A stretch of 64,000 nucleotides of DNA from the NCBI GenBank assembly GCA_965204745.1, contig OZ242010.1:672001-736000 (forward strand), written 5' to 3'. Of the stretch, positions 5,495-61,060 are shown piece by piece; position 1 is the first letter of the stretch, and each line of letters starts with the position of its first letter. The DNA is from Candidatus Latescibacterota bacterium (lineage in GTDB: Bacteria; Latescibacterota; UBA2968). The position numbers and the translations under genes are program-made. The notes below the pieces were generated by a model. It was not told the origin of the DNA and ran no database searches. It saw only the letters and a program-made list of their open reading frames with translations.

Positions 5495-5664
5495 GAGATT
5501 CCTCAAGAAATGACGGCATGTCATGCGAGCGACAGGCTGACGGAGCATCTCTACCTGCTTCGCCTTTCTCGACTTGGCAACTCATCAATTTTCCACTATG
5601 TTGATTTCAGCCCCCGGCTATTTCCTCTATTCGCCTGTTTTGCTGGCCCTTATACGGAGCCCCC

Positions 5665-28583: not shown

Positions 28584-28618
28584 AAAAAAAACGCGACCAC
28601 AAAGGCCGCGTTTTTTTT
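28584..28618. terminator. bidirectional intrinsic terminator
   Basis: A8-CGCG..CGCG-T8 between the atp operon and the giant gene. Confidence 0.85.
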
Positions 28619-28636: not shown

Positions 28637-31600
28637 CTAAAAGTTCAAATGACCTTGTAGCATCACCCCGTGAGTTGCCTCATCGCTGGCCGCATGGCGC
28701 ATCCCCTCCAGACTCACATTCCCCAACCCACCGATCTCCATCCGACCGCCAAAGCGATAGCCCCGCGTGCCATCCTGTGAAAATCTGAAGCCACTATAAG
28801 GCGTGAGCAACCCAGCGAAAATCGGCACCGTGTATCCGACCTCCGTATCCATCTGCATCGTCGGCGCGAAGCCGGTCACTCCCGTACCCACCACGCCTTG
28901 CTCCCACAACTGCGCGATGCCACTGCCCATCTCGCCATAAGACGGTTGCAATCGGAACGACAGCCCGCGACCATTGTCTTTTGGCGCAAACTGCACGGAA
29001 AGACCCGCGCTCCACTCCTTCGTATCCCCCGCATGGACGAGCAAAATTCGGCTCGTCGCCTCCACCGTCAACCGCACAGCCACATATTGCAACCCACCGC
29101 CGAGTTCAACGCCTGCGCCGGTCTGTCCATCGCCGCCATCCATCCGCATGCCGAGTTCCATCGACGGCGTCAGCGACGCGCCCGAGGCAAACCCAAAAGT
29201 ATGCGCCCCCTCGCCCGCCAAGCGCAAGCGTTGGGTCGTTGCGGCCACGCCTTCGATCCCATCGCCATTGTCATCAACCGCCAGCCGCGTCACCCACGCC
29301 TCGCCCTTCAAATCGAACGTCGAGGGCAGGCCAAACAGACGCACGCGCCCACCCGCCGCTGCGGTCCTCAGATTGCTGTCGCTCGCCTGTGACCCGGCGG
29401 TTTCGTCATCTATCGCAATCTCGCCCTGGCCATAGCCAACCGTTGCCCACAGGTTTGCCCCCTTCTGCGAAGACCAGCCCAAATAGGGATGGGCACTCAC
29501 CATGCGGCTCTCGTGCGTTCCAGCTATGGCCTCGCCATACCCCCGATCCGTGTACCCAACCGATCCGTCAAACCATGACCCTGCAAGCCCGGCGATCAAG
29601 CCATTGCCAAAACGCATGTCTGCGCCTAAATGCACGCCGAAAAGATCGCCATCCCATGAAATAGGCGCGTCACTGCTGAGGCTCAGGCTTCGAAAATCGC
29701 TCGCGCCCCACAGCGCGACACCTCCGCCTTGCCCGGCATTGGGCGTGCTCGCGTGGTTATGGGAAAGCGGGATGGCAAAGGACGAACCCCCGAGCATCTC
29801 CTGCAAGGACCATAGACCTTCTTGGATCGCGTACTCACTCGCCATCACCTTGTTGGCAAGTGACATGAGGGTCGCTTCGGCGTTCACGTTTCCCGGCGAA
29901 AAGCCTTCCTGATCGAGGCGCCCGGTCAGCGCGTCGAGGCTACTCGTCCGCATTGCGCGTGCGAGTTCGGGCAAAATCGCCTCGTTGATCGCCTTGAGCC
30001 GCACCCGATCTGACACCTCAATCGCAATGGTAAAGTTCAGTTCCGCCATATCGCCATCCGCATCTGTCACCGCCCACTTGTAAGCGACCTCGGTCATCGG
30101 CGTGGTCGGCACACCGGAAAGCACCCGCGTCGCCGGATCAAACGTCAACCCAGCCGGCGGGGAGGGCGTCAACGAGTAGGTCAGAATACCATCGCCCCCG
30201 GTCGCCTCGGGCAATGTGAGCGGCACAATCTCCCGACCTGCGCGGTAATGCTGAGGGGCTATTGTCTCTGTGAACACCGGCACCAAATCCGCCGCCACCT
30301 CAACCGTAAAGACCAAAACCGCCGTATCCCCATCCGCATCTGTCACAGTCCAAACACACTCCGTCTCATCTATCGCCTCAATCGGTGTGCCGGAAAGCAG
30401 GCGCGTCACAGGATCAAACGTCAAGCCGGGCGAAGGAGCAGGCCTCAACGTGTACGTTAGCGGGGCATCCCCACCAGACGCCAAGGGCAACCTGACAGGC
30501 TCAATCGCTTGGTTCTCAACGAACCGCTGTGCCGCCACCGTATCCGTGAACACAGGCACCAAATCCGCCTCAACCTCAACCGTGAAGACCAAAACCGCCG
30601 TATCGCCATCCGCATCTGTCGCAGTCCAAACACACTCCGTCTCATCTATCGCCTCCGTCGGTGTGCCGGAAAGCAGGCGCGTCACAGGATCAAACGTCAA
30701 GCCGGGCGAAGGATCAGGCGTCAGTGCATAGGTCAACACACCATCCCCACCCACGGCCTTGGGCAACCTGACGGGAGATATCGCTTGGTTCTCAACGAAC
30801 TGCTGTGCCGTCACCGTATCCGTGAACACGGGCACCAAATCTGCTTCAACCTCAACCGTGAAGACCAAAACCGCCGTATCCCCATCCGCATCTGTCACAG
30901 TCCAGATACATTCCGTCTCATCTATCGCCTCAATCGGCGTGCCGGAAAGCAAGCGCGTCACAGGATCAAACGTCAAGCCGGGCGAAGGATCAGGCGTCAG
31001 CGTGTACGTTAGTGGGGCATCCCCACCAGACGCCAAGGGCAACCTGACAGGCTTAATCGCTTGGTTCTCAACGAACCGCTGTGCCGCCACCGTATCCGTG
31101 AACACCGGCACCAAATCTGCCGCTACCTCAACCGTGAAGACCAAAACCGCCGTATCCCCATCCGCATCTGTCGCAGTCCAAACACACTCCGTCTCATCTA
31201 TCGCCTCCGTCGGTGTGCCGGAAAGCAGGCGCGTCGCCGGGTCAAACGTCAAGCCGGGCGAAGGATCAGGCGTCAATGTGTACGTTAGCGGGACATCCCC
31301 ACCAGACGCCAAGGGCAACCTGACAGGCTTAATCGCTTGGTTCTCAACGAACCGCTGTGCCGCCACCGTATCCGTGAACACCGGCACCAAATCTGCCTCA
31401 ACCTCAACCGTGAAGACCAAAACCGCTGTATCCCCATCCGCATCTGTCACAGTCCAAACACACTCCGTCTCATCTATCGCCTTAATCGGTGTGCCAGAAA
31501 GCAGGCGCGTCGTAGGATCAAACGTCAAGCCGGGCGAAGGATCAGGCGTCAGTGCATAGGTCAACACACCATCCCCACCCACAGCCTTGGGCAACCTGAC

Positions 31601-34600
31601 CGGAGATATCGCTTGGTTCTCAACGAACTGCTGTGCCGCCACCGTATCCGTGAACACCGGCACCAAATCTGCCTCAACCTCAACCGTGAAGACCAAAACC
31701 GCCGTATCGCCATCCGCATCTGTCACAGTCCAAACACACTCCGTCTCATCTATCGCCTCAATCGGTGTGCCGGAAAGCAGGCGCGTCACAGGATCAAACG
31801 TCAAGCCGGGCGAAGGAGCAGGCCTCAACGTGTACGTTAGCGGGGCATCCCCACCAGACGCCAAGGGCAACCTGACAGGCTTAATCGCTTGGTTCTCAAC
31901 GAACCGCTGTGCCGCTACCGTCTCTGTGAACACCGGCACCAAATCCGGCTTCACCACCTCAACCGTGAACATCAGTTTCGCCATGTCGCCATCCGCGTCC
32001 ATTGCCGACAGCGTGTACAGGATTGCATCCGCTTTTTCGCTCGGTGTGCCGGAAAGCAGGCGCGTCACAGGATCAAACGTCAAGCCGGGCGAAGGATCAG
32101 GCGTCAGTGCATAGGTCAACACACCATCCCCACCCACGGCCTTGGGCAACCTGACGGGAGATATCGCTTGGTTCTCAACGAACTGCTGTGCCGTCACCGC
32201 ACCAAATCGCCTCAATCCGTGAACACGGGCACCAAATCTGCTTCAACCTCAACCGTGAAGACCAAAACCGCCGTATCCCCATCCGCATCTGTCACAGTCC
32301 AGATACATTCCGTCTCATCTATCGCCTCAATCGGCGTGCCGGAAAGCAAGCGCGTCAACACACCATCCCCACCCACAGCCTTGGGGACCTGACCGGAGAT
32401 ATCACGAACTGCTGTGCCGATCAAACGTCAAGCCGGGCGAAGGATCAGGCGTCAGCGTGTACGTTAGTGGGGCATCCCCACCAGACGCCAAGGGCAACCT
32501 GACAGGCTTAATCGCTTGGTTCTCAACGAACCGCTGTGCCGCCACCGTATCCGTGAACACCGGCACCAAATCTGCCGCTACCTCAACCGTGAAGATCCGC
32601 TTTTTCGCTCGGTGTGCCGGAAAGCAGGCGCGTCACAGGATCAAACGTCAAGCCAAGTGCATAGGTCAACCGCCGTATCCCCATCCGCATCTGTCGCAGT
32701 CCAAACACACTCCGTCTCATCTATCGCCTCCGTCGGTGTGCCGGAAAGCAGGCGCGTCGCCGGGTCAAACGTCAAGCCGGGCGAAGGATCAGGCGTCAAT
32801 GTGTACGTTAGCGGGACATCCCCACCAGACGCCAAGGGCAACCTGACAGGCTTAATCGCTTGGTTCTCAACGAACCGCTGTGCCGCCACCGTATCCGTGA
32901 ACACCGGCACCAAATCTGCCTCAACCTCAACCGTGAAGACCAAAACCGCTGTATCCCCATCCGCATCTGTCACAGTCCAAACACACTCCGTCTCATCTAT
33001 CGCCTTAATCGGTGTGCCAGAAAGCAGGCGCGTCGTAGGATCAAACGTCAAGCCGGGCGAAGGATCAGGCGTCAGTGCATAGGTCAACACACCATCCCCA
33101 CCCACAGCCTTGGGCAACCTGACCGGAGATATCGCTTGGTTCTCAACGAACTGCTGTGCCGCCACCGTATCCGTGAACACCGGCACCAAATCTGCCTCAA
33201 CCTCAACCGTGAAGACCAAAACCGCCGTATCGCCATCCGCATCTGTCACAGTCCAAACACACTCCGTCTCATCTATCGCCTCAATCGGTGTGCCGGAAAG
33301 CAGGCGCGTCACAGGATCAAACGTCAAGCCGGGCGAAGGAGCAGGCCTCAACGTGTACGTTAGCGGGGCATCCCCACCAGACGCCAAGGGCAACCTGACA
33401 GGCTTAATCGCTTGGTTCTCAACGAACCGCTGTGCCGCTACCGTCTCTGTGAACACCGGCACCAAATCCGGCTTCACCACCTCAACCGTGAACATCAGTT
33501 TCGCCATGTCGCCATCCGCGTCCATTGCCGACAGCGTGTACAGGATTGCATCCGCTTTTTCGCTCGGTGTGCCGGAAAGCAGGCGCGTCACAGGATCAAA
33601 CGTCAAGCCGGGCGAAGGATCAGGCGTCAGTGCATAGGTCAACACACCATCCCCACCCACAGCCTTGGGCAACCTGACCGGAGATATCGCTTGGTTCTCA
33701 ACGAACCGCTGTGCCGCCACCGTATCCGTGAACACAGGCACCAAATCCGCCTCAACCTCAACCGTGAAGACCAAAACCGCCGTATCCCCATCCGCATCTG
33801 TCGCAGTCCAAACACATTCCGTCTCATCTATCGCCTCCGTCGGTGTGCCGGAAAGCAGGCGCGTCGCCGGGTCAAACGTCAAGCCGGGCGAAGGATCAGG
33901 CGTCAATGTGTACGTTAGTGGGGCATCCCCACCAGACGCCAAGGGCAACCTGACAGGCTTAATCGCTTGGTTCTCAACGAACCGCTGTGCCGCCACCGTA
34001 TCCGTGAATACTGGCACCAAATCCGCCTCAACCTCAACCGTGAAGACCAAAACCGCTGTATCCCCATCCGCATCTGTCACAGTCCAAACACACTCCGTCT
34101 CATCTATCGCCTTAATCGGTGTGCCAGAAAGCAGGCGCGTCGTAGGATCAAACGTCAAGCCGGGCGAAGGATCAGGCGCCAATGTGTACGTTAGTGGGGC
34201 ATCCCCACCAGACGCCAAGGGCAACCTGACAGGCTTAATCGCTTGGTTCTCAACGAACCGCTGTGCCGCTACCGTCTCTGTGAACACCGGCACCAAATCC
34301 GGCTTCACCACCTCAACCGTGAACATCAGTTTCGCCATGTCGCCATCCGCGTCCATTGCCGACAGCGTGTACAGGGTTACATCCGCTTTTTCGCTCGGTG
34401 TGCCAGAAAGCACCCGCGTCGCAGGATTGAAACTCAGCCCCTCCGGCAACCGCGGCATCAGAACATAAGTCAACACACCATCGCCACTGGTCGCCTCGGG
34501 CAACGTCAGCGCGTCAATTTTCACATTCTGCACGTAGTTCTGCGCGGACACGCTATCCGTGAACACGGGCACCAAATCTGGGATAACCTCTATCGTGAAC

Positions 34601-37600
34601 CGCACCATAGCCGTATCGCCATCTTCATCCGTCGCGGTCCACAGATATTCGGTCGTGTGCATCGCCTTGGTCGGCGTACCCGAAATCGTGCGCGGACCTT
34701 CGTCGAAATCCAAACCCGCAGGCAACGCAGGCGCCAACTCGTAGGTCAGCACACCATCGCCACCGGTTGCCTCGGGCAATGTCAGCGCGTCAATTTTCGC
34801 ATTCTGTACATAGTGTTGCGCGGACACGCTATCCGCAAACGACGGCAACAGATCTTCGTCCACCACAACGAAGAAACTCACGCTCGCCTCGTCCCCATCC
34901 TCATCTGTCGCGGTCAGGGTGTAGCGCGTCTTGGCCTGTGGCTCGGGCGGCGTGCCAGCCATGATACCGCCATGATCGTCCCCTTCCACAGGGGGCGTAT
35001 AAGTCAGCCCGGCAGGCGGGATCAGCGCGTAAGTCAACGCGCCATCCCCACCGGTCGCGGGTGGGAAGACCAACGGCGTGATGGGTGTGCCTTGCCGATA
35101 GCGTTGAAAATCCACCGCATCCGTGAATGTCGGCACCAAATTGGGCGGCACTTCCTCTGTCAAAACCACAGTTTGCAAAATCGCCGCAGTTTTGGCCTTC
35201 GGCCCTGCACCGGCCGCGTTCACCGCTCGCACATAGAACATGTACTCTATGTTATTTGCCAACCCGGGTAGCGTGTGCTCAGTGGTCGTTGCGTCGCTAC
35301 CCGTTATCGTTGCCCAAGCGACAGCGAGAATGTCTTCGTCCTCATGCGCGTACCGAACCTCATAGCGCGTGATGGTGGGGTTATTGGGATTAGCCCACAT
35401 GAGGGTCGCTTGCTCGCTGCCAGCGACTGCCCGCAAGTTGGCAGGCGGATCAGGGACCGCAAATCTCACCGTGATGCTGAACGTCAAGTCCGCCGTATCG
35501 CCATCGATATCCGTCGCGGTCAGCGCGTACGTGGTCTTGGATTTCGTCTCTGTCGGCGTTCCAGAAATCACCCGCGTCGTCCCGCTGAAAGAGAGTCCAT
35601 TCGGCAAAGTCGGCGCTAGTGTGTACGTCAGATCACCATCGCCGCCACTGGCTGCCGGCAAAGTGACCGGGGTGATCGTCTTGTACAGGAGATAATGCTG
35701 GTCATCATAGGTATTTGGGCTAAAAATCGGCGTCAGACCGACCTGTCCTCCTCTGGGAATTGATACCACTTCGATTGTGAATGTCAGCGCGGCTTGGGCG
35801 TTGCTTGTGTCTGTCGCTGTCCATGTGTACGTCGTCTTGTCCAAGGCCACACTCGGCGCACCGCTGACCCGGTGTGCGGCGTCCTTGGTTACCCCATCGG
35901 GCCAGGCAGGAGCAATGTCGTAGCTCAAAGTGCCGGTACCACCGATCGCAGTCGGCAAAGTGAACGCCGTGATCGTCTCGTTCTTCGTCCAAGACTGGTT
36001 ATCTATCGCCGAACCAAACGACAGCTGACGTCCCCAAAATGATCCCCCTTCAGGGTTCTCGACGCGTTGTGGTCCAACCTGGATCGTGAACTTCAGTGTC
36101 GCCGTGTCGTTATCTGCGTCCGTCGCAGTCCATGTGTACGTCGTCTCGCTCATCAACCGGGTCGGCACACCGCTGACCCGGTGTGCGGCGTCCTTGGTTA
36201 CCCCATCGGGCCAGGCAGGAGTAATGCTGTAGGACAAACTGACATCACCACCGGTCGCAGTCGGCAAAGTGAACGCCGTGATTGTATCGTTCTGCGTCCA
36301 AGACTGGTCATCTATCGTCGCCGAACCAAACGACGGCACCCCATCCACCACAATGGTGAACGTCAATTCCGCCTTGTCCCCATCCGTTTCCGTCGCTGTC
36401 CATGTGTACGTCGTCTTGCCCAAGGCCACACTCGGCGCCCCGCTGACGCGATGATTGGCGGCCTTGGACACGCCATTCGGCAGATTAGGCGATAGGGTAT
36501 GGATCGCGGTGCCATCGCCACCACTGGCCGTAGGCAAGGTGAACGCCGTGATCGCCTGGTTCTGCGTCCAAGCCTGATCGTTCACCGTTGTCGAGAAAGA
36601 CGGAGCCTCGTCGTCATCGCGGATGGTCAGGGTTACATCAGAGGGATCGGTTATGCCTTGAGTGTTACTCACCGAACCCGAAACAGTCACTGACTTATCC
36701 GCCGAATCCTTCGTATTGTCCACCGCTGAGATCGTCACGGTGCCACTACTCGTCGTCTGACTGGTCGCTATCGTCAGCGTTGTCGCATTGGACAGCGTGA
36801 AATCGCCAGCCACCGCATGCGTGCCAGCCGTTGCCGATACCGTGATAGTTGTCACCGCGCTTGATGCGCCGCTCAACTTTGCGGTCACTGTCGCCACTCC
36901 GCCATCCTCTGAAATCGACGCGGGCGACAGAATTAGAGATACCGTCGGTGTACCCTCATCATCGGTAATCGTCAGCGTCGCGTTAGATGGGTCAGACACA
37001 CCAAGACCACCGCTCGCTGAACCCGAGACCGTCACGCTCTTGCTCGGCTCATCTTGATTGTTGTTCACCGCCGTAATCGTCACGGTGCCACTACTCGTCG
37101 TCTGACCGGCCGCGATAGTCAGTGTCTTGTCCGCGCTCAGCGTAAAATCGCCTGCTACCGCATTCGTGCCAGCCGTTGCGGTTACGGTGATCGTCGTGAC
37201 CGCGCTCGACGCCCGAGAGAGCGTAGCTGTCACCGTCGTCACGCCGCCATCCTCTGAAATCGACGAGGGCGACAGAACCAAAGATACCGTCGGTGTACCC
37301 TCATCATCGGTAATCGTCAGCGTCGCGTCAGACGGGTCAGACACACCAAGACCACCACTCGCTGAACCCGAGACCGTCACGCTCTTGTTCGGCTCATCTT
37401 TGTTGTTGTTCACCGCCGTAATCGTCACGGTGCCACTACTCGTCGTCTGACCTGCCGCGATGGTCAATGTCTTGTCCGTGCTCAGCGTGAAATCGCCTGC
37501 TACCGCATTCGTGCCAGCCGTTGCCGATACCGTGATGGTCGTCGCCGCACTCGATACGCCGCTTAACTTTGCGGTCACTGTCGTCACGCCGCCATCCTCT

Positions 37601-40600
37601 GAAATCGACGAGGGCGACAAAACCAAAGATACCGTCGGCGCACCCTCATCATCGGTAATTGTCAGCGTCACGTTAGACGGGTCAGCCACACCGAGACCGC
37701 CACTCGCTGAACCCGAGACCGTTACACTTTTGTTCGGCTCATCCTTATTGTTGTTCACCGCCGTAATCGTCACGGTGCCACTACTAGTCGTCTGACCGGC
37801 CGCGATAGTCAGCGTCTTGTCCGTGCTCAGCGTGAAATCGCCAGCCACCGCATGCGTGCTTGCCGTTGCCGATACCGTGATCGTCGTCGCCGCGCTCGAT
37901 GTGCCGCTCAACTTTGCGGTCACCGTCGCCACACCGCCATCCTCTGAAATCGACGAGGGCGACAGAACCAAAGATACCGTCGGCGCACCCTCATCATCGG
38001 TAATCGTCAGCGTCTCGTCAGAGAGGCCGGACACACCAAGACCACCGCTCGCTGAACCCGATATGGTCACGCTCTTGTTCGGCCCATCTTGATTGTTGTT
38101 CACCGCCGTAATCGTCACGGTGCCACTACTCGTCGTCTGACCCGCCGCTATTGTCAGCGTTGTCGTATTGGACAACGTGAAATCGCCTGCTACCGCATTC
38201 GTGCTTGCCGAAGCAGAAACCGTGATCGTTGTCGCCGCGCTCGACGCGCCGCTCAACTTTGCGGTCACCGTCGTCACGCCGCCATCCTCTGAAATCGATG
38301 TTGGTGACAAAGTCAGAGATACCGTCGGTGTACCCTCATCATCGGTAATCGTCAGCGTCGCGTTAGACGGGTCAGACACACCGAGACCACCGCTCGCTGA
38401 ACCAGATACCGTCACGCTCTTGTTCGGCTCATCTTTGTCGTTGTTCACCGCCGTAATCGTCACGGTACCACTACTCGTCGTCTGACCGGCCGCGATGGTC
38501 AGCGTCTTGTCCGTGCTCAGCGTGAAATCGCCAGCCGCCGCATTCGTGCCTGCCGTTGCCGATACCGTGACCGTTGTCGCCGCGCTCGATGCACCACTCA
38601 ACTTTGCGGTCACTGTCGCCACGCCGCCGTCCTCTGAAATTGACGAGGACGACAGAACCAAAGATACCGTCGGCAACCCCTCATCATCGGTAATCGTTAG
38701 CGTCGCGTCTGACGGGTCAGCCACACCAAGACCGCCACTCGCTGAACCAGACACGGTCACGCTCTTGTTCGGCTCATCCTTATTGTTGTCGTTAGCCGTA
38801 ATCGTCACGGTACCACTACTCGTCGTCTCTCCCGCCGCGATAGTCAGCGTCTTGTCCGTGCTCAGCGTGAAATCGCCATCTGCCGCATTCGTGCCAGCCG
38901 AAGCAGAAACCGTGATCGTTGTCGCCGCACTCGATACGCCGCTTAACTTTGCGGTCACCGTCGTCACGCCGCCATCCTCTGAAATCGACGTTGGTGACAG
39001 AATTAGAGATACCGTCGGCGCACCCTCATCATCGGTAATCGTCAGCGTCGCGTTAGATGGGTCAGCTACACCGAGACCGCCACTCGCTGAACCCGAGACC
39101 GTCACACTCTTGTTCGGCTCATCCCTGTCATTGTTCACCGCTACAATCGTTACCGTCCCGGTGCTCGTCGTCTGACCGGCCGCGATAGTCAGCGTCTTGT
39201 CCGTGCTCAATGTGAAATCGCCTGCTACCGCATTCGTGCCAGCCGTTGCGGATACCGTGATGGTCGTTGCCGCACTCGATGCGCCGCTCAACTTTGCGGT
39301 CACCGTCGTCACACCGCCATCCTCTGAAATTGACGAGGGCGATAAAATTAGAGATACCGTCGGCAACCCCTCATCATCGGTAATCGTCAGCGTCGCGTTA
39401 GACGGGTCAGACACACCAAGACCACCGCTCGCTGAACCCGAGACCGTCACACTCTTGTTCGGCTCATCTTGATTGTTGTTCACCGCCGTAATCGTCACGG
39501 TGCCACTACTCGTCGTTGATCCCGCCGCGATAGTCAGCGTCTTGTCCGTGCTCAACGTAAAATCGCCAGCCACCGCATTCGTGCTTGCCGTTGCCGATAC
39601 CGTGATGGTCGTTGCCGCGCTCGATACGCCGCTCAACTTCGCGGTCACTGTCGCCACGCCGCCGTCCTCTGAAATCGACGAGGGCGACAGAACCAAAGAT
39701 ACCGTCGGCAGACCCTCGTCATCGGTAATCGTCAGCGTCGCGTCAGAGGGGGCGGACACACCAAGACCACCACTCGCTGAACCAGACACGGTCACACTCT
39801 TGTTCGGCTCATCTTGATTGTTGTTCACCGCCGTAATCGTCACGGTGCCACTACTCGTCGTTGATCCCGCCGCGATGGTCAGCGTTGTCGTATTGGACAG
39901 CGTAAAATTGCCATCCGCCGCATTCGTGCTTGCCGAAGCAGAAACCGTGATCGTTGTCGCCGCGCTCGATACGCCGCTCAACTTTGCGGTCACTGTCGTC
40001 ACGCCGCCATCCTCTGAAATCGACGAAGGCGACAGAACCAAAGATACCGTCGGTGTACCCTCATCATCGGTAATCGTCAGCGTCGCGTCAGACGGGTCAG
40101 ACACACCAAGACCACCACTCGCTGAACCCGAGACCGTCACGCTCTTGTTCGGCTCATCTTTGTTGTTGTTCACCGCCGTAATCGTCACGGTGCCACTACT
40201 CGTCGTCTGACCTGCCGCGATGGTCAATGTCTTGTCCGTGCTCAGCGTGAAATCGCCTGCTACCGCATTCGTGCCAGCCGTTGCCGATACCGTGATGGTC
40301 GTCGCCGCACTCGATACGCCGCTTAACTTTGCGGTCACTGTCGTCACGCCGCCATCCTCTGAAATCGACGCGGGCGACAAAATTAGAGATACCGTCGGCG
40401 CACCCTCATCATCGGTAATCGTCAGCGTCATGTTAGACGGGTCAGACACACCGAGACCACCACTCGCTGAACCAGACACGGTCACACTTTTGTTCGGCTC
40501 ATCTTGATTGTTGTTCACTGCCGTAATCGTCACTGTCCCACTACTCGTTGTCTGCCCCGCCGCGATAGTCAGCGTTGTCGTATTGGACAATGTGAAATCG

Positions 40601-49600: not shown

Positions 49601-52600
49601 AAGCCTCGCTCGACGCATGATCCAGTGTCGCGGTCACTGTCGCCGAAGTTGTCGTGCCGCGCTCGTCAATCGTCGATGGCGTCAGCACCAAAGTCGCCGT
49701 CGGCGTCGCCTCGTCGTCCGTCAGCGTCAGTGCCACGCCAGTCACACTGCCTATGCCGTGGCCGTTCGTCGCTGTCCCGGACACGGTCGCGCTCCGGTTA
49801 CCCACATTGTCAAGGTCGTCATTCACCGCCGTGATCGTCACGCTGTCGGTGGTGTTCGACGTTTCGCCAGCCGCTATCTCAATCGTCGCGTCCGCCCCCA
49901 CCGTATAGCTCCCGGTCACTGCGGTCACAGTAACGGTTGTCGCCGCGCTCGACGCCCGAGAGAGCGTCGCCGTCACGGTCGTCACACCGCCATCCTCTGC
50001 TATCGCGCCATCTGCCACCGCTAGCGTCACCGCGGGCGCGGCATCGTCGTCGGCAATGGTCAGCGTCACATCCGACGGGGCAGTCACGGCCGCGTTGCCG
50101 CTCGTGCCCGCCACGGTCACCGTCTTATCCGGCGCATCCACCTCGTTGTCCACCGCCGCTATCGTCACCGTCCCAGTACTCGTCGTCCCTCCCGCCGCGA
50201 TAGTCAGCGTCGCCGCGCTCGACAGCGTGAAGTCGGTCGCCACCGCAGGCGCTACCGGCGTCGCGGTCACGGTGATCGTCGTCGCCGCGCTCGATGCCTT
50301 GTCCAGTTTCGCGGTCACTGTCGCCGAAGTTGTCGTACCGCTCTCGTCGATCGTCGATGGCGTCAGCACAAGCGTTGCAATGGCCTTGTCGGCTACGGTC
50401 ACGTCGAAGGTCAGCGACGCGGTATCGCCATCTCTATCGGTGGCTGTCCAAGTGTATTCGGTCTCTGCCGAGGTCACAGTCGGCGTGCCGGAGACCACGC
50501 GGGTGGTCGCATTTCGGATCACGCCAGTCGGCAACGCGGGCGACAGCGTGTACGTGAGGCTGCCATCGCCGCCGGTCGCTTCGGGCAAGGCGAAGGAATC
50601 GATCTGCACATCCTTGATCCAATTATGATCGGCAATCGCCGCGTCGCCAAAACTCGGCAGAGCATCTACGCTGATGGTGAACGTCAGCGTCGTAGCATCC
50701 CCATCGCCGTCCGTGGCTGTCCACGTATAGGTCGTCAACGCCTTGGCCGCCGTCGGCGTGCCGGAGACTTCGTGGGTGGCGGCATCCCGCACCACGCCGC
50801 TGGGCAACTCGGGCGACAGCGCGTAGGTCAACGCGCCATTGCCGCCGGTCGCCGCCGGCAGGGTGAATGCGGTGATGAGCACATCCTTGATCCACGATTT
50901 GTCATCCACTGTGGCACTGAACGACGGCGTTAAGTCCGCGGCAACGGCCACGGTGAACGTCAGCGTCGCCGCATCGCCATCGATGTCCGTGGCCTTCAGG
51001 GTGTAGGTCGCTTGGGCCGCGGCAACGGTCGGCGTCCCGATAAGTGCGCCGCCCTCGGCCGCGTTTCTGGACTGCTGATACGTGAGCCCGGCGGGCAGGG
51101 TCAAGTTGGTCGCAGTGCCCGGCCCGGACAGGGCGTAGGTCAACGCGCCATTGCCCCCCATGGCCGCGGGCAAGGTAACCGTGCCGATAGGCGTGTTCTG
51201 AATGTAGTTCTGGGCAGTCCAAGTGTTGGGGTTGAAGGCCGGGATGGCGTCTGCTTGCACCTCTATCGTAAAAGTGAGCGAAGCCGCGTCGCCCTCGGCA
51301 TCGGTAACCGTCAGCTTGTAGGTCTGCGCGGCTGCGGCTGTGGTGGGCGTGCCGGCAATCGTGCCGCCGTTGGTCGTGCCGGTGGGCTGGGTGTACGTAA
51401 CGCCCGCGGGCAGGGTCAAGCTAGTCGTCGAAGTGCCCGGCCCGGACAGACCGTAGGTCAACTCGCCATTGCCCCCCATGGCCACGGGGAGCGCGACCGC
51501 CGGCGAGATGGGCACATTCTCGACATAGAGTTGCGCGGGGAAGGTCGAACCGAACGTCGGAACCGAGTCCTCGACGATTTCGATAGTGAAGCTCAAGGAC
51601 CCGCTGTCGTTATCCGAGTCCGTCGCGGTCAATTGGTACTGTGCTTGGCGCGTCACCGCAGTCGGCGTGCCGGTAATCGTGCGCGTGCTCGGCGTGAACG
51701 TGAGCCCAGCGGGCGGACTGGTGGGCATGGAGTATGTCAGGGTGCCCTCGCCAGTGGCCGCGGGCAACCGGTACCTGACCGGTTCCCGAACCGTCCAGCG
51801 CAAGGCCGGCACGACGGCCCCGCGAAACACCGGAATCGACTCCACCCGGTAATCGACCTTGTGCCCGGCCTGATTGCCCAAGCCCCCAAAGGTCCGAGAC
51901 GCATCTTGACCGCCCAGGTCCCGAATGGTGCCGCCGGTCAGCGGATTGGCGGGAATACTGATGCCGTCGGTATCTAAATCCGGCGACTGCACTGTATAGA
52001 CAAAAGAATGTTGAGTGCCGTGATTGAGAGCACCGCTTGCGTACCGCGTCTGACCGCCGATGTTCATCGCCAAATTGACGACACTGCTGGCGCTCACCAG
52101 CTTGCCAAACCAGACCTGTAACTGAATCCTCTCGCCATTGCCGTAGGTTTGGCGTTGGCGGGGGCGCGAGACGAAGAAGATGCTCTGGATTAGGGCCGGA
52201 TGGTTGACGCTACCGTCAACCAGGTAGGAGAACGTGCGGTTGCCAACGGACAGGCGGGCATTGCCGTTGGTCGCCGCGGCTCGGATGCTGCCGCCGTTGA
52301 GGGTCAAGGCGTTGTCCGCGATGCTAATGCCGTCGGTGTCCCGATCCGACGACTGCACGGTATAGCGGAATATCGTGTGAGTGCCCGTCCTACCGCGATA
52401 AGTCAGTTGCCGCTTATAGGTGCCGATAGTCAACGCGAGTTGGGGCGAACCGCTGACGTTCACCGGCACACTGAAATGCACATGTGCATCGATGTATTCG
52501 TGTACATCGAACGAATTGTTGTATTGCGGGGCAGAGATCGAGACGCGCGTCACGCTCGGCAGGCGGCTTTCGCTGCCATCGACCTTGTGCGCCGAGGCGT

Positions 52601-55600
52601 TGGTTATCGCATGGCTGCCCAGTCCGAGGGCCGCGGCATTGTCGTTGGCCGCCCCCACAATGCTCCCGCTCAGCGCGCCCGCCGCGATGCTGATGCCGTC
52701 GGTGTCCGCGTCCCCGGGCTGCACCGGATACATAAAACCTAACGCATTGCGTCCGCTGGCCACATTCTGGCTACCGGGCACCCACGCTTGGCGCGTATAA
52801 GTGCCGATGCTCAATGCCAGTTGCGGATTGCCGCTGAATTTCACCTTGTCGCTAAACGACACCGCCACATAGACGGTCTCGCCGATGATGTATTCGCCGT
52901 TGGCATGGGGATGACCCGTGAACCGCACGCCGGTTACTGTCGGTCGCCGCCCGTCGACCTTGTGGCCTATGGCCGCGCTGATCGCGTGACTGCCGAGGTT
53001 GATGTTGGCATCCACGCCGCCGCTGCGAACAGTGCCGCGGCCACCGTTCAAGTCCAGCGCATTGGCGGCAATGCCGATCCCGTCGCTGTCGTAGTCGCCT
53101 TCCACTACCGTATAGCGAAACGTGTGGGTGGTGCTCGGCGGATCCGCAAGATATTCACGCGGGGCCTTGTTGATCGCCCGTCGCGTCGCGTTGCCGATAG
53201 TGAGATTCAAAAACGGAAAGCCGTTGTTGTTTCGAGTGTAGGTCCTGCGGCCTACCACCACCGCCTTGCTGAACGTGACCTGCACGGTGATGGTCGCGCC
53301 AATGTTGTAGGAGGTACCCCGAGACGGGCTAGAGGTGAACGACACGCCGGTTATGACCGCCGGATGGTTCACGCTGCCATTGACCTTGTGCCCGGATTGG
53401 TTGCCGAGCGCGAAGGTGCCCAGGCCGATTTGGGCGTCTTCGCCCTGGGCATTGCGGATGGTCACGCCAGAGGGCAGGGTCAGCGCCGAAGTCCCGATGC
53501 TAAGCCCGTCCGCATCCCGATCAGACGCCTGTACCGCGTACTCAAAGGCCATGGCCGTGCCGCTCCCCGGGACCATGCCGCGATAGGTGGCCTGCCGGGT
53601 ATAGCTGCCGATAGTCAACGCCAGTCGCGGCGAACCGTTCACCGCGGCCCCTTGGTTGAAGCGCACCTGTACGCGGATGACCTCGCCGAGGCTGTATTCG
53701 TTGGTCGTGGTGTTTTGCGGCCTGGAGACCAGACGCACGCCGGACACCTGAAAGGCGCGGGTCACGCTACCATCGACCTTGTGCGCCGACTGATTGCCCA
53801 AAGCGTAGATGCCCAAGCCGAGCACTGCGTTGTGCGTGCCCCCCCGGTTGCGGATGGTGCCGCCATTGAGCGTCAGGGCATTGGCCCCGATGCTGATGCC
53901 GTCGCTGTCCCGATCCGACGCCTGCACTGTGTAGCGGAACACCACAGAAGATCCCACCACACTGGCGTATGCCGCCTGCCGGGTGCTGCTGCCGATAGTC
54001 AACGCCAACTGCGGCGTGCCGGTGACCTTCACCGTCTTGTCGAACCGCACATAGACCGCGATCTCCTCGCTACGGGCATACGTACCATCGCGTAGCGGCG
54101 TCTGCGCGAGGGATACCCCGGTAACCGCGGGGCTTTCCCCGCTCACCTTGAGGGTGAAGGGCAGCGTATCTCTGTCGCCATTGGCGTCGGTCGCGATCAA
54201 GTTGTAACGGATCTGAGGCGAGGCATTCTGCGGCGTGCCGGAGAGGACAACCGTCTGGCGGAGACGACCATTGACAACGACCGCCCCGCGTCCGAGTCTC
54301 AGGCCGCTGGGAAGCGAGGGCGAGGTCGTATAGGCCAAGGGGGCGTCCCCAGTGGGTGATGCGGGCAAGTTATAGAGGGCCGCCATGCCGACCGTCAGCG
54401 CCAAGTTGGGACCCGTCGCCGAGCCAAAGTCCGGCCACTGCCCTTGCTTGCTGCCATCGACCTTGGCCGTGGTCACATTGGTCAGGATGTGGGTGCCGAG
54501 GTCGAGCACTGCATCTTCGGTATCCACGCCCCGAATGGTCGCGCTAGAGGGCAGGGTCAGCGCGTCCGCCGCGATGCTGATCCCATCGGTATCCGCATCT
54601 TCGGCCACGACGGTATAGGTGAAGTCAAGGGAGGCGGCTGGCGTGGAGGAGGCACTGGCAGTCGCCTGGCGCGTGTACGTGCCGATAGCGAGGGCCAGTT
54701 CCGGGCTGCCGGTCACCGTCACGGATTGATCGAACGTGACCCGCGCCGTGATCGTCCCGCCTCGGGTGTAGGTGTTGGCTTGTTGCGGCGTGGAGGAGAT
54801 GGACACGGCCGTGACCTTCGGCGGCGAGGACACCTTGTGGCCCGCCGAGTTGGCGATAGCCTGACTGCCCAAGCCGAGGATCGCGTCGGCATTGGCCGCA
54901 TCCCGCAGGGTCGCGCCAGAGGGCAGGGTCAGCGCGCCCGCCGCGATGCTGATGCCATCGGCGTCGTAGTCGGCTTTGGTCACCGTGTAGCTAAACCGAA
55001 AAATGGTGCGCTGGCCGTTGACGATGGGAGCAGTGTCTCCATCGACGGTGTACGCTGTGGCTTCGCGCGTGGAGGTGCCGATGGTGAGGGCCAGTTTGGG
55101 AGCGGCGGACGCCGTAACCAACTCCGAAAACCAAACACTCACATTGATAAATTCGCCCTCGCCGTACGCGTCCCCGGAGCTGGGATTGCTAATTATGTCC
55201 ACCCTTGTGATCGCAGGCAGTGCATTGCCGCTGCCGTCCACCTTGTGGCTCGGGTCGTTGGTGATGGCATGGCTACCGAGGCCCAGCGCGGCGTCGACGT
55301 TAGAGGCATCGCGGATCGTGCCGCCATTCAGGGTCAGCGCGCCGCTGCCGATAGTGATGCCGTCGTTATCCGCATCGGACGCCTGCACGAAGTATTGGAA
55401 TGTGTGGTAAGGATGGTTGAAGGTTGGGCTACCAACGTGGGTTGCTTGGCGCGTGGTGCCGCCGATAGTCAGTGCCAGTTGCGGCGTGCCGGTCACCGTA
55501 ACGAGTGGCGTGAACTCGATCCCTACCGCGATGGGCTTGCGCGGGTTGACAAAGTAGAAATTGTTGGCTCCGGGCCCCGGGTCGGACAAAAAGGTCACTT

Positions 55601-58600
55601 CGGTCACATTGGGCGCGTTGGCCGCCGCCACCGTGATCGTAAATGCCAGCGGCGCGGCGTCGCCATCCCCATCCGTCGCTGTCCAAGTGTACGCCCGCGC
55701 CGGCCCGACCGCTTGCGCTGTCGGCGTGCCGGTGATCTTCCGGGTCGTCGCGCTGTACGAAAGCCCGCCGGGCAACGTCGAAGGCGACAAGGTGTGGGTC
55801 ACCGTCCCGTCGCCGCCCGTCGCCGTGGGCAGGGTGAAATCTACCGCTGTCCCGGCGATGAAGTGCTGTGCCTCCAACCTGCCAAAGGTCGGCTTGGTGT
55901 CCCGCACCGTGTGGTCCGGGTCGTTGGCGATAGCGTGCCTGCCCAAGCCCACCAGTGCCCGTCGCGGAAAGGTGCCCGGAACAAAATAAGTAGAAAAGCC
56001 GGTGTTGGCGGTCACCGCGTCCGCGGCGATGCTGATGCCGTCGCCGTCGAAGTCCGACGACTGCACGGTGTAGCTGAAGGTGTGTTGAGGAGTGCCGGTC
56101 GTCCACGTCGCCGTGCGGGTGTGGGCGCCGATAGTGAGCGCCACCGTCGGGGGGTTGTTGTGCACGATCACTTGCTCGGTGAACGCGAGGCGAACCTCAA
56201 TCGCCTCGCCCGCGTCGTAAGTGCCGTTCGCCCCGGGGCTGGACGAGATGGTGACGCCAGAGATGATCGGCGGCGTATCCACTTTGTGGCCGGTGGCGGT
56301 GGCGATAGCGTGGCTACCGAGGGCGAGATTGGCGTCGCGCGTGTTCGTCGCGTCGCGCAACTTGCCCGTGCCAGTCAGGGTGAGCGCGCCCGCGGCGACG
56401 CCGATGCCGTCGTCGTCATCGTCTGCCGCCTGCACTTGGTAGCCAAAGCGCAAGGTGCTGGCGTTGGGCTTGCTGGCAAACGCCGCGCTGCGCGTGACCG
56501 TGCCGATAGTGAGTGCCAAACTGGGGTTGGGCGCCGTAACCGTTACCTCTTGGTCGAACTGCACATCTACGCTGATGGTCTCCAGCGCGCCGTAGCTGTC
56601 GCCGCTTCCCGGGCTGGAACTGATGGAAACCGCGCTCACCGCAGGGGCCGTGGTCACCGCCAGCGAAAAGGTCAACGAGGTCGCGTCGCCATCGCCGTCG
56701 GTCGCCGTGTACGTGTACGTCGCGGTTGCGGTTCGCGTGGTGGGCGTGCCGTGGATGCGGCGCTGGGCCGCGTCAAAGGAGAGACCTGCGGGCAGAGCCG
56801 GCGTCAAGGAGTAGCGACGGTTGCCGTTGCCGCCGGTCGCTACGGGCAGATATTCTGCTACTGCCGTGGCCGCCGGGTAGTTCTTGGCGGCTACCGTGGC
56901 GCTGCCAAACGAAGGCGACATGTCGTTCACCGTGCGCCCCGTGGCGTTGATAATGGCGTAGGCACTGAGGTCGAGCGCGGCGGCTTTCCTGTCGGCACCA
57001 TGGATGCTACCGCCGTTCAGGGTCAACGCGGCGGCGCCAATGCTGATGCCGTCGCCGTCGAAGTCCTGCGACTGCACGGTGTACCCAAACATAATGGCGT
57101 CCTCTGTAGTGAGAGGTGTGTGAGTCGCTTGGCGCGTGTTTTCGCCGATAGTCAGCGCCAGTTGCGGCGCGCCGGTCACCGTGACGGGCCGATTAAATGC
57201 GATAATCACAGAAATGATCTCACCCGTGGCGTAGTCGCCATCGAACGTTGGAGATACCGGGATCATTAGGCTACGCGGCCTCGGCGCATCGGCCGCCGCC
57301 ACCATGACGGTGAACGGGCCGAGCGTCGCCTCGTCGCCGTCGACATCCCGCACCGTCAGCGTGTGCGTGGTCGTGCCCGAAACCGTGGGCGTCCCGGTTA
57401 TGGTCGGAGTCGCGCGCTCCAGCGAGAGACCGCTGGGCAGTGCCGGTGACACGCTATAGGTCAACGCGCCATCGCCGCCCGTCGCCAAAGGCAACGTCGA
57501 GGACGTCTGCATATTCGGCGCGAGCGACCGGTTGGCGGCACTCGCGTTCTGGGTAAAGGAAGGCGACGTGTCCTGCACTCGCATCTTTCGGCTGGTCGCG
57601 TCGCCGTTCGCAATCGCGTGCGTTCCCAGGCTGAGCTTGGCGTTCGCGCCGTCGTCCGACGCCAGGATGGTCCCCCCGTTCAGGCTCAGCGCGTCCACTG
57701 GGACCGCGATGCCGTCGCCGTCGAAATCGTCTGACCGCACCGTGTAGGTGAAGATCAGTATGTCGTATGGATCGTTGTCCGTCGCCCGCCTCAAATAGGC
57801 CGTCGCGGTGGCGTCATAATTGGCCTTGCGCTTCCTGTTGCCGACGACCAGCGTGACCTGCGGCGTCCCGGTGACCGTCACCTTCTCGGGATACTGGACC
57901 AGGAACATTATCTCATCCCCGGGCCAGTGGTTGACTTTGGTGCGGCCGTTCACATGCTCCAGGCGCACGCTGGTACCCTCAATCGCCGGCCCCCTGGGTG
58001 CCCACACCCGCAACGAGAAGGTCAGGGTCACGGCGTCGCCGTCGGCATCCGTCGCCCGATAGGTGTAGGTGGTGGTGGCCGTGGCCGTGGTCGGCGTGCC
58101 CGCAATGGTGCGCGTCGAGGCCGTCCATGTCAGGCCCGCTGGCAACGTGGTCGGCGAAATCGAGTAGGTCAACGCGCCATTGCCGCCCGTGGCCGCTGGC
58201 AACGCAATCGGCGTGATCGCCGTGCCGGTGTCGTACAACTTGCTCTCGACGGTCGCCGTGCCAAAGGAAGGAGAAGAGTCGTTCGCCGTATAGGGCGGGT
58301 CATTATCGACCGCGTGCGTGCCGAGGCCGAGCACTGCGTCGTTGGCGTCCGCGTCGCGGATGGTGCCCCCGTTGAGCGTCAGCGCGGTGGCGGCAATAGC
58401 GAGGCCGCCGCTATCACTTGACTGGACTGTGTGGGTGAAGGTCAGCGCGGTACTGGTCTGGCTACTTTTGGATGCCTGTTGCGTGAACGTGCCGATAGTG
58501 AGGGCCAACCTGGGGCTGCCGGTCACTGTCACCGCCTGATTGAAATCGACCGTCACGGTGATCACCGCGCCCGTGATGTAGTCGCTATTGGCGGGCGGCG

Positions 58601-60425
58601 ACACGAGGCGCACGCCGGACACGCGCGGCGGCGTCTTCACCTTGTGGCTTGTGGCGTTGGCAATGGCGTGCGTGCCAAGGCCGAGCAACGCATGCCGGCC
58701 TCTGGCGCCGCGCAGGGCGCCGCTGCCAGTCAGGGTCAGCGCGGTGGCGGCGATAGTGATGCCGTCGGCATCTTGGTCCGCCGTCTGCACGGTGTAGCGG
58801 AAGCTCAAGGTGGTGAAGTTCTGGCTCAGGCTGTGGAAGGCGGCGGTGCGCGTGTACGTGCCGATAGTCAGCGCGAGGCTGGGATTGGGCGGATACACCG
58901 CGACAGGTTCGTCAAACGTCACATTCACCGCAATCGTTTCCCCGGCGTCGTAGGCGTCGCCGGTCGCCGGGGTAGAGGTGATGGTCACTCCGCTCACCAC
59001 GGGATGACTGCTCACCGCGATAGTGAATGTCTGGGAGATCGCGTCGCCATCGCCATCGGTCGCCGTGTAGGTGTAGCTGGTGGCCGCCGTGACCGTGGTG
59101 GGCGTGCCCGCGATAGTGCGCGTCGAGGCCGTCCACGTCAGGCCCGCTGGCAACGAGGTCGGCGAAAGCGCGTAGGTCAACGTGCCATCGCCACCCATCG
59201 CCGCTGGCAGTTGGTCATTCACCGGCGCGTCCTTTTGGTAGTACCTCGCGTTCATCGCAGAGCGGAAGGTGGGCGAAGCGGTGTCCCGCACCTTGTGCCC
59301 GGCCGCGTTGGCGATGACGTGGTTGCCGAAGCGGAGCGAGGCGTCCAAGCCGCCGGTTCTGGCGCGGATGGTACTTGGGTAGGGTCGTCCCAACGCGGCG
59401 ATGCTGATGCCGTCGCTGTCCGAGTCCTCTGATGTGATGGTGTAGCTGAAGGACAGGGTGACGCTGTCGGCGGCGATGCTCTGGTAGGTCGCATAGCGAT
59501 TGGCGTCGCCGATGCCGAGCCTCACGTTGGGCGTGCCGGTAACGACTACCGCCTCGTCAAAGACGACTTCCACCGATAGGTCTTCGCCTGCGATGTAGTT
59601 GCCAGTGTTCAGCGGCGTGGAGCTGATCCGCACCCGGCTCACCTGAGGCGCGTTCTCGTTCGCCACCGTGATCCAGAACGACAACAACGCATAGTCGCCA
59701 TCGGCGTCGCTGGCTCGTATGTAGTAAGCAGTTTGCGCCAGGGCCGTCGTGGGCGTGCCGGAGAGAACGCGGGTGGCGTTGTTGAAGGTGAGGCCGTTCG
59801 GCAGAGCACCCTGGAGGCTATAGGTCAAGGTCCCGTCGCCGCTGTTGGCCGCCTCCAGCGTCTCGCTGACCGAGTTGTTTTGCACAAAGTGGAGTACCGG
59901 GCCGTGGTATCCCCCAGGGGCGCCGAAGTACGGACGGGTGTCGTTGACCGTGTGGCGCGTGGCGATGGCGATGGCGTGACTACCGAGGGATAGATTGGGA
60001 GGAGTGCCGTTGGCGTCTGCGATGCGACCGCCGTTGAGCGTCAGCGCGGTCGCGGCGATGCTGATGCCATCGCCATCGTGATCCGTCGCCTGGACGACAT
60101 ATTTGAATTGCAGGGAGGAGTCGTTGGTGGTGCTGTGGAAAGACGCGCGGCGCGTCTGACTGCCGATGCCGAGCGCGAGATAGGGCGTGCCAGATGCCGT
60201 GTTCACCGTGAAGCGGGCCGAAGTGAACGACACCTGCACGGTAATGGTATCCCCGGCGGCGTAGGTATTGGCGCGCGATGGCGTGGACGTGATGCTTACA
60301 CTGCGAACAGTCGCGGCGGTTTGCGCCTCGGCCGGGACAGCGCATAACAGCGAAGTAATGGCAGAGAAAATCGCAAAAAATTGAACGCATCGAGCATGGA
60401 TGCTATGTATCGCACTAGCATCCAT
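28637..60425 (-). CDS. giant repetitive surface adhesin with C-terminal autotransporter-like barrel (~10,600 codons; three ORFs in this assembly)
   Basis: ORFs 48510-60560, 32641-48474 and 28637-32215 continue the same repeats across the breaks; signal peptide ...LLCAVPAEA|Q; ends GVMLQGHLNF; start at ATG 60425 (GAGG RBS) or 60560. Confidence 0.88.
30020..35150 (-). repeat. ~276-bp (92-aa) He_PIG-like Ig repeats
   Basis: LP.A.GGD..LTY.L.P.PSPGLTFDP.TRLLSGTP...TDADGD units, near-identical at DNA level over ~30270-34400. Confidence 0.9.
35185..35457 (-). other. fibronectin type III domain in the giant protein
   Basis: PDPPANLRAVAG...LMW...YEVRY...GLANNIEYMFYVRAVNAAGAGP. Confidence 0.85.
36600..50390 (-). 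repeat. ~38 near-identical plus 2-3 diverged 345-bp (115-aa) Calx-beta-like repeats
   Basis: Unit PTVSL.LS..SISEDGG...GDFTLS...LTIAAG.TTSSGTVTITAVNN..DEPNKSV...LTITDDEG; 345-bp period counted by eye. Confidence 0.92.
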
Positions 60426-60441
60426 GCTCAATGCCTCTCGC

Positions 60442-60470
60442 CGTAAATCGCTGTAAAAGAGCGATTTACG
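60442..60470. promoter_or_regulatory. perfect 11-7-11 inverted repeat
   Basis: CGTAAATCGCT-GTAAAAG-AGCGATTTACG; function unknown. Confidence 0.6.
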
Positions 60471-60471
60471 A

Positions 60472-60492
60472 GGGGGGGGGGGGGGGGGGGGG
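60472..60492. repeat. G21 homopolymer (C21 on the coding strand)
   Basis: 21 consecutive G at the 5' end of the giant gene. Confidence 0.95.
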
Positions 60493-60611
60493 TACGGAGT
60501 ACAACGAAAGGAAAGACAGCGCCGACAGGCTAACACCGCCCGCCCCTTTGATGTGAACATTCGTCGTCATCTGAACACTCGTTCCGCACAAACGCGCGGA
60601 AAATCGCGTCA

Positions 60612-60947
60612 CTACTCCGCATCTAACACGCGCTGAAATGCCTCTAGATCATCGACTTGCACCGCCGCACGATGCAACCGCTTGAGCCGTTGCAAATCGT
60701 CAATGACCGCAATGCGATCAGCCAATCGCCGCACCGCGCCCGGATGAAATCGAATTTCCAATGCTTCAAGGAGAAATTCAATGGCGTTTTCTCTTTCCCC
60801 TTGCTCAATGCCCTGCTCAATGCCCTGCTCAATGCCCTGCTCAATGCCCTGCTCAAGGAACTGTTCCTTGAATTGTTCCTTGAACTGTTCTTTGAACTGT
60901 TCCTTGAGGTATTGGGCAAATGATGATTCACGCATAATTGCGTCCAT
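60612..60947 (-). CDS. stand-alone Rpn/YhgA-like C-terminal domain protein
   Basis: AGGAGG RBS, then MDAIMRESSFAQYL-(KEQF)4-L-(EQGI)4-EQG..LEIRF..IDDLQRLKRLHRAAVQ; 12-bp tandem repeats at ~60797-60905. Confidence 0.7.
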   Translation of the reverse strand: MDAIMRESSFAQYLKEQFKEQFKEQFKEQFLEQGIEQGIEQGIEQGIEQGERENAIEFLLEALEIRFHPGAVRRLADRIAVIDDLQRLKRLHRAAVQVDDLEAFQRVLDAE

Positions 60948-61060
60948 AAGACCCTCCTGGACAATAATAACAAATATAGCAAGGGATGTCAAAGGATATC
61001 AAGGGTTTTGGAACGGAGAGATTAGAAAAAATTGAAGAGTGAAAAATCTGTCTGATTCAC

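Follow-up and report, generated by a model that had tools for sequence, protein, structure and literature searches.

A probable megadalton surface fibre with an autotransporter-like barrel in Candidatus Latescibacterota

Classical (type Va) autotransporters, among them EstA (3KVN), NalP (1UYO), Hbp (3AEH), AIDA-I (4MEE), EspP, and BrkA (family PF03797), join a passenger and a C-terminal, 12-stranded barrel in one chain. Sec delivers the chain, the barrel forms a hybrid with BamA, and the passenger, usually a beta-helix, is exported C to N and folds outside; neither ATP nor a proton force is present at the outer membrane, and export is attributed to the folding of the beta-helical passenger (PMC6555100, PMC13721041). 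Here we describe a locus in a window of 64,000 nucleotides (the whole stretch analyzed; positions 672,001 to 736,000 of contig OZ242010.1, assembly GCA_965204745.1) from a Candidatus Latescibacterota bacterium. We consider it probable that the minus strand at 28637-60566 of this window carries one gene for a surface fibre of ~10,500 residues (~1.05 MDa), anchored in the outer membrane of a sponge-associated cell, and that assembly errors have broken the gene twice. The predicted protein shares with type Va proteins a signal peptide, an N-terminal passenger, a linker helix, a C-terminal barrel, and an aromatic end; passenger and barrel lie in one chain, which is continuous at the barrel end in one same-species protein (P0354), across the first break in another (P0358), and throughout in a genome of the same genus (G016). 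It differs in that the barrel is predicted to have 18 strands and the ~10,000 passenger residues form ~90 immunoglobulin-like (Ig-like) modules. We conclude from the models that the protein would work like a type Va autotransporter adhesin yet departs from the 12 strands that mark that class.

The giant adhesins of type I secretion systems (T1SS), such as LapA and MpIBP, have Ca2+-type Ig-like extender repeats and a similar mass. The stalk of our protein matches LapA and Calx-beta profiles, but the protein differs from these adhesins in its Sec signal peptide, its own C-terminal barrel, the absence of repeats-in-toxin (RTX) motifs and of an adjacent T1SS, and its opposite polarity; a T1SS giant adhesin is tethered to TolC (10.64898/2026.03.19.712371). 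Inverse (type Ve) autotransporters such as intimin and invasin also link a barrel to long strings of Ig-like domains (2-47 repeats, PMC9704523), but their barrel is N-terminal and their passenger C-terminal, whereas here the type Va-related barrel is C-terminal and the modules are about twice as numerous. Periscope proteins (PMC9704523) are likewise single chains with near-identical tandem repeats of varying number; our chain, in contrast, mixes several repeat types, its rod shape is predicted, and its repeat counts come from assemblies prone to mis-sizing. Finally, Calx-beta arms are also a feature of the sponge aggregation factor, whose protein MAFp4 displays extracellular Calx-beta arrays in the same habitat (PMC11670116); compared by description this is a lead only, and MAFp4 belongs to a eukaryotic glycoprotein complex, unlike a bacterial single-chain fibre.

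With regard to size, AtaA has 3,630 amino acids and a length of 260 nm (PMC13721041), and BadA, at 240 nm, is among the largest trimeric adhesins (PMC6555100). Compared with the longest autotransporter that we found in print, the predicted product has roughly three times the length, which is possibly a record for type V secretion, though not for bacterial proteins: far larger open reading frames (ORFs), of 36,806 and 20,647 amino acids, lie beside T1SS-type genes (10.64898/2026.03.19.712371). A giant-gene survey names an autotransporter once in its accessible text, for ShdA-like domains (10.1101/2023.11.21.568195); the accessible part of a strand-count survey (10.64898/2026.03.07.710327) has no passage on an 18-stranded autotransporter, and the words autotransporter, adhesin, and Calx do not occur in a paper on sponge Latescibacterota (PMC12993501). 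The literature searched, from which most subscription papers fell outside and in which preprint supplement tables could still list such genes, contained no account of this barrel family, nor any autotransporter of such size. What is new is the predicted size class of 1.0-1.4 MDa, for which four further genomes with intact frames provide support.

As assembled, the locus consists of three long open frames of 4,018 (A), 5,349 (B), and 1,201 (C) codons, counted from stop to stop and far above chance expectation, in a window with no N bases. Two breaks aside, no in-frame stop occurs across ~10,500 codons, and reading through both breaks gives a product of ~10,550 codons. Using profiles made from the locus's own units, we counted 91 modules (17 head, 33 He_PIG, 40 Calx-beta-like, and 1 FN3) plus one scrambled He_PIG unit, and Pfam independently recovered He_PIG stretches of 12, 13, and 8 together with the FN3 domain. 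Read along the minus strand, a probable start and Sec-type signal peptide of 34 residues (60324-60425; identified by eye, with the typical n/h/c layout, A-E-A at residue 34, and kept in same-species proteins) precede a head of 17 Ig-like units of ~125 residues interleaved with 7 He_PIG units (51843-60323; detected with our own profiles). Then come 5 He_PIG units (50394-51818), a Thr/Ser-rich stalk of 40 Calx-beta/LapA-like units of ~115 residues each (36610-50378), 4 He_PIG units with the FN3 domain (35182-36603), 9 acidic He_PIG units (32668-35133), and 8 more acidic He_PIG units (30020-32200), the first of which extends into the final part of the scrambled zone; all of these are supported by both Pfam and our own profiles. 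The 460 residues that follow the modules comprise a linker helix and, according to a model and structure matches, an autotransporter-like beta-barrel with a predicted 18 strands and a C-terminal Phe (28637-30040, stop 28637-28639).

The original prediction, made from the sequence alone, had described a single modular reading unit with a stalk of ~40 Thr/Ser-rich repeats, a He_PIG-like and FN3 base, roughly 90 domains, and a barrel as anchor. The module order, the stalk, the base, and the domain count all stood, and the barrel is found again in the orthologue and relatives; the single reading unit stood in part, because the assembly has three frames and two breaks, although the evidence favours one gene. 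Its start at 60560 probably has to be moved. The probable translation start is the ATG at 60425, which directly precedes the signal peptide and is used by the public gene call and by four same-species proteins; P0357 and P0359-P0362 share this start. Two features had escaped the original prediction: the predicted departure of the barrel from the standard 12-stranded form, and the poly-C leader ahead of the gene.

Break 1 (48534-48537) leaves the sixth stalk unit one base short and is probably an assembly error. P0358 (3,798 amino acids, from another assembly of the same species and 97.7% identical to frame A) passes from the end of A straight into the start of B. When we compared four sequencing runs (X1-X4) over 48250-60700, run X2 gave a single contig across the break (depth 106.8/106.8) in which an extra base lengthens a homopolymer and restores the frame; run X1, which according to the records shares its sample with X2, matches the assembly nearly exactly (0-1 differences per listed long piece). 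Break 2 (32138-32667) consists of 530 bp of jumbled He_PIG fragments, with a copy of a 993-bp exact repeat on each side, and is probably a consensus artefact. The jumble resolves into one ordinary unit that is interrupted by brief stretches from others; the offset of the flanking repeat (1,523) equals the nearby 1,383-bp period plus 140. Over this region P0354 (3,958 amino acids, same species, 91-93% identical) runs through stalk, He_PIG units, FN3, 15 further He_PIG units, and barrel without a break. In G016 the orthologue is one frame of 10,886 codons whose modules (14 head, 29 He_PIG, 51 stalk, and 1 FN3) follow an identical order and whose barrel is 85% identical, and it adjoins nadE and the ATP synthase operon on either side, as at the source locus.

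Other observations weigh against an intact gene. Runs X1 and X3 have no depth at break 1, run X4 (depth 20.5 there) lacks the inserted base among its listed differences, and the orthologue in G018 is also broken, by 1 bp at another position within a stalk unit. Of the four runs, X2 thus speaks for one frame, and because X1 lacks depth and X4 lacks the base, the exact strain is not proven intact. If the gene were truly broken in this strain, as a pseudogene or in a frameshift-off state, the cell would shed an unanchored piece of ~4,000 residues; the two breaks in the assembly, the X1 and X4 data, and the G018 break are what this explanation has in its favour. Yet same-species proteins cross both breaks, a contig from the same sample restores the frame through a longer homopolymer, the out-of-register patchwork at break 2 is not what we would expect from recombination between aligned repeats, and ~10,500 codons have otherwise stayed free of stops. 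We give true breakage a slim chance and conclude that both breaks are, in all likelihood, assembly errors and that the locus is one gene, very probably intact in nature. We rejected a programmed frameshift at break 1, because the G018 break sits elsewhere in its unit and the same-species P0358 is in frame. As a control on frameshift rate, we found a change of frame in 3 of 49 matched genes, at least one of them in an antisense frame; the error could lie in either of the genomes compared.

To characterize the barrel, we folded the C-terminal 467 residues in AlphaFold, using 92 sequences, and obtained a model with a mean predicted local distance difference test score (pLDDT) of 85 and a predicted template modelling score (pTM) of 0.80; a single-sequence fold (pLDDT 32) was discarded. 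The model consists of a 36-residue helix (residues 11-46), shorter helices, and then 18 strands. Classical autotransporters rank first against it by Foldseek and VIA-align (Z 14.7-17.0, root-mean-square deviation [rmsd] 3.8-6.3 Å), led by EstA (Z 17.0, rmsd 4.6 Å, 245 aligned residues), and the linker helix aligns with the autotransporter chains. These matches cover model residues 9-388 only, and 22-stranded receptors align to residues ~50-467 (Z 11-12). A C-terminal W or F, here Phe, is found in 299 of 322 full-length family rows. In a direct-coupling analysis (334 rows, effective 196), strand-level covariation supports neighbouring strands (mean 4.0 vs 1.9 background), with noisy top single pairs.

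Family profiles give a similar picture. Eighteen of 20 relatives pass PF03797 (the relatives were chosen for already bearing that label), and the match ends at profile position 204-222 of 255 in 15 of them, at 242 in one, and lower in four; none reaches the profile end, and ~150 residues remain beyond the match. TIGR01414 matched in one of three relatives, and the barrel profile found a single, unrelated match (E 1.6) among PDB sequences. Two results count against our assignment: the source barrel scores 20.3 bits against PF03797, below the cut-off of 26, and covariation backs neither closure of the barrel (strand 1-18, 0.4; strand 1-12, 1.7). A candidate explanation of strands 13-18 as a duplicate of strands 7-12 was unsupported (hhalign probability 10.6%; controls, shifted or reversed, scored as high as 14-18%). 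The model points to one 18-stranded, autotransporter-related barrel, which we regard as likely; a single wider barrel is suggested by the high rmsd to 12-stranded barrels together with the receptor alignments.

Turning to the passenger, the 17 head units share a mean identity of 40% with each other and have no Pfam match. Their neighbours in the protein Atlas are unnamed or carry Big_5/Big_12 on fewer than one-quarter of members, and a search of PDB sequences gave nothing convincing. The head is near neutral in charge, while the base is strongly acidic (D+E 15%, K+R 5%). In the stalk, Thr and Ser make up 36% of residues. The 34 whole stalk units of frame B have a mean DNA identity of 85% (74-99%), and because units are mostly distinguishable at this level, the count of 40 is credible. 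A 1,158-residue stalk piece scores 62 bits in total against Calx-beta (PF03160), and a Glu and a DD[ED] motif are kept in all 40 units, which makes a Ca2+-stiffened fibre plausible; on the other side, two single units tested score 19 bits each, below the cut-off of 27, and at one site most units have Asn rather than Asp at the canonical acidic position. After FN3, the number of He_PIG units varies from 17 plus one scrambled here to 15 in P0354 and 9 in G018.

Together, these features suggest the following mechanism. Sec would carry the chain to the periplasm, and the barrel assembly machinery (BAM), perhaps with the translocation and assembly module (TAM), would insert the barrel by way of its C-terminal aromatic signal. 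The passenger would then exit C terminus first, in the type Va fashion, with the acidic base leading; its Ig-like units would fold outside one by one and bind seawater Ca2+, providing both an export ratchet and a stiff rod. At the ~4 nm that an Ig-like domain spans, the rod would measure ~0.35-0.45 μm and hold out the diverged, near-neutral head at a distance from the cell surface, where it could attach in sponge tissue. Recombination between near-identical repeats could change the length of the rod, and a poly-C leader (described below) may switch expression. Our best reading is an adhesin or spacer fibre, with export, calcium binding, and ligand all deduced from sequence. A bolder version, in which these single-chain proteins are the largest type V substrates so far (1.0-1.4 MDa, at least 90 Ig-like domains), exported through BAM and a hitherto undescribed 18-stranded barrel of autotransporter type by a Ca2+ ratchet as poly-C-switched, length-variable fibres whose stalks engage or mimic the sponge aggregation factor, is a tentative proposal that we think rather doubtful.

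Two alternatives bear on this mechanism, and we hold each to be unlikely. Instead of binding a ligand as an adhesin, the fibre could act physically, as a spacer or as a shield that guards the cell in sponge tissue against phage, phagocytosis, or crowding. Family scans found no lectin or other recognizable ligand-binding domain in the protein, which weighs against an adhesin; the head is a common Ig-like repeat, present in 2,511 of 8,000 scored candidates, and in the distant relatives of G014, G027, and G032 the four locus profiles detect stalk-like units only. The lack of a recognizable binding tip gives such a spacer or shield role some probability. Conversely, a diverged head on a homogenized stalk (40% mean identity vs 85% DNA identity) is the tip-versus-stalk pattern we would expect of an adhesin, and the near-neutral head contrasts with the strongly acidic base. 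Alternatively, the barrel could merely anchor the protein while another machine, TAM or the resident type IX secretion system (T9SS), exports it or helps heavily, or strands 13-18 could be a separate domain beside a 12-stranded barrel. SprA, 14 PorV-family genes, and TamB are encoded in the genome, the autotransporter structure matches stop at model residue 388, and covariation between strands 13 and 14 lies at background (2.3 vs 1.9 ± 0.7), all of which fits this alternative. By contrast, the C-terminal frame has no match to a T9SS C-terminal sorting domain family in Pfam or NCBIfam, the pore-type helix is retained in the model, and PF03797, with its profile end unreached in every chosen relative, spans only about the first ten of the predicted strands. 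Strands 13-18 are also kept in 326 of 328 rows that have strands 1-12, and the rmsd values and receptor alignments given above suit one wider barrel.

We next consider how widespread the family is. Barrel-covering matches occur in 18 of the 21 searched genomes of the genus, with two more weak and one without a match. Three of the 20 other genomes of the genus have barrel-ending frames of more than 10,000 codons (G016, 10,886; G014, 11,240; G032, 14,091), and a genome of a neighbouring family has one of 11,178 codons (G027); all four are unbroken in the genome sequences, with lengths counted from stop to stop and so including some residues before the start. The claim that the protein lies far above the usual autotransporter size therefore holds both here (~10,550 codons) and in the unbroken relatives. 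The G032 frame (G032:C1:2326560-2368835), the longest member seen, has a signal-peptide-like start and 98 Calx-like matches. A barrel profile search returned 6,502 cluster representatives at E <1e-30, a number that overstates the family because the profile includes passenger columns; the longest among the best 150 has 7,796 amino acids. Among the best 78 of 283 loci, the named records nearest in sequence (78-84% identity) carry the label Ca. Latescibacterota, and more distant ones are metagenome-assembled genomes of Alpha- and Gammaproteobacteria, Binatia, Nitrospirales, Vicinamibacterales, and others. The source genome has this barrel in one copy. Shorter second paralogues with FN3 heads and He_PIG stalks exist in G016 (G016:C1:4646185-4656699, 3,504 codons) and G018 (G018:C1:4059601-4066191, 2,196 codons), with barrels 78-80% identical, and no such FN3-headed paralogue was found in the source genome.

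Upstream of the gene lies a leader (60426-60570, minus strand) with a short ORF that runs from an ATG at 60570 through a tract of 21 C (60472-60492), 46 nt upstream of the start. At 21 C the leader ORF terminates 40 nt early; adding a C would move its end to 2 nt upstream of the start, and losing one would fuse it to the gene. A leader ORF with a C tract is also present in G016 (C6) and G018 (C13). The leader is a candidate slippage switch that may control expression. Length variants of the tract gave no matches in Joint Genome Institute (JGI) metagenomes, the run contigs are cut at the tract, and no RNA runs are listed among the 16 runs that hold this stretch. Of 40 C-tracts of at least nine in the genome, 27 are found where a long frame on the same strand begins, mostly inside a single conserved leader that immediately precedes the ribosome-binding site in giant surface genes. 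A/T runs of at least 12 are almost absent; this looks like a genome-wide set of slippage switches. A terminator-like hairpin (60541-60514, minus strand) lies inside the leader ORF directly upstream of the poly-C tract, where a role in attenuation is possible. Further upstream, a small ORF with EQF/EQG repeats (60612-60992, minus strand) has no Pfam match and a strong sigma-70-like promoter (11/12, at 60992-60964); it may resemble the C-terminal part of Rpn-type proteins.

The gene is flanked by housekeeping genes: ATP synthase lies downstream, and NAD synthetase and carbonic anhydrase lie upstream. The ATP synthase epsilon gene converges on the giant gene, and the A-tract, hairpin, and T-tract that separate the two (28584-28618) look by eye like a bidirectional terminator, but the terminator scan did not list it. 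A tyrosine recombinase (XerC/D-like) gene lies far away at 4565-5548 (minus strand). The original prediction had noted the lack of nearby T1SS or T9SS genes and of RTX motifs. This holds for the surroundings: no T1SS or T9SS families occur among 22 flanking ORFs scanned, there are no GGxGxD motifs in the five protein regions counted, and no T1SS or T9SS signal family exceeds the cut-off on the protein pieces scanned (TIGR03660 appears only below it). It does not extend to the genome, which encodes a T9SS, judging from SprA and the PorV-family genes above cut-off, and perhaps a T1SS, given an adjacent HlyD-like/PrtD-like pair below cut-off. Six Omp85 matches, including a BamA-sized frame of 802 codons, and one TamB match were also found. 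Fourteen PorV-family loci beside one SprA are an unusual expansion for a genome outside Bacteroidota. At many other loci in the genome (C1:235547-243235 is one), the tails of 42 open frames (~298 kb, 5% of the genome) are nearly identical and match dockerin weakly (E 0.008, below cut-off). A dockerin/EF-hand-like motif ends 31 frames, a set that may overlap with the first, and many of these frames share Calx-like and He_PIG units with the giant gene. We considered the head as a cohesin-like dock for these proteins and dropped the idea, because the head has no cohesin family match and its unit occurs in only two loci of the source genome.

As to habitat, the 16 runs that hold this stretch are labelled sponge metagenome (5), marine metagenome (2), metagenome (2, with a small share), or by coded organism names (7), and the host bacterium is probably sponge-associated. 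For such uncultured sponge symbionts the protein is a concrete candidate for how they attach or keep their distance. Genes of this type are hidden from protein databases by repeat-induced assembly errors. For type Va secretion, a passenger of 10,000-14,000 residues, built of independent Ig-like domains and carried on a wider barrel, would test the reach of the mechanism, and it raises the question of whether Ca2+-triggered folding can power export.

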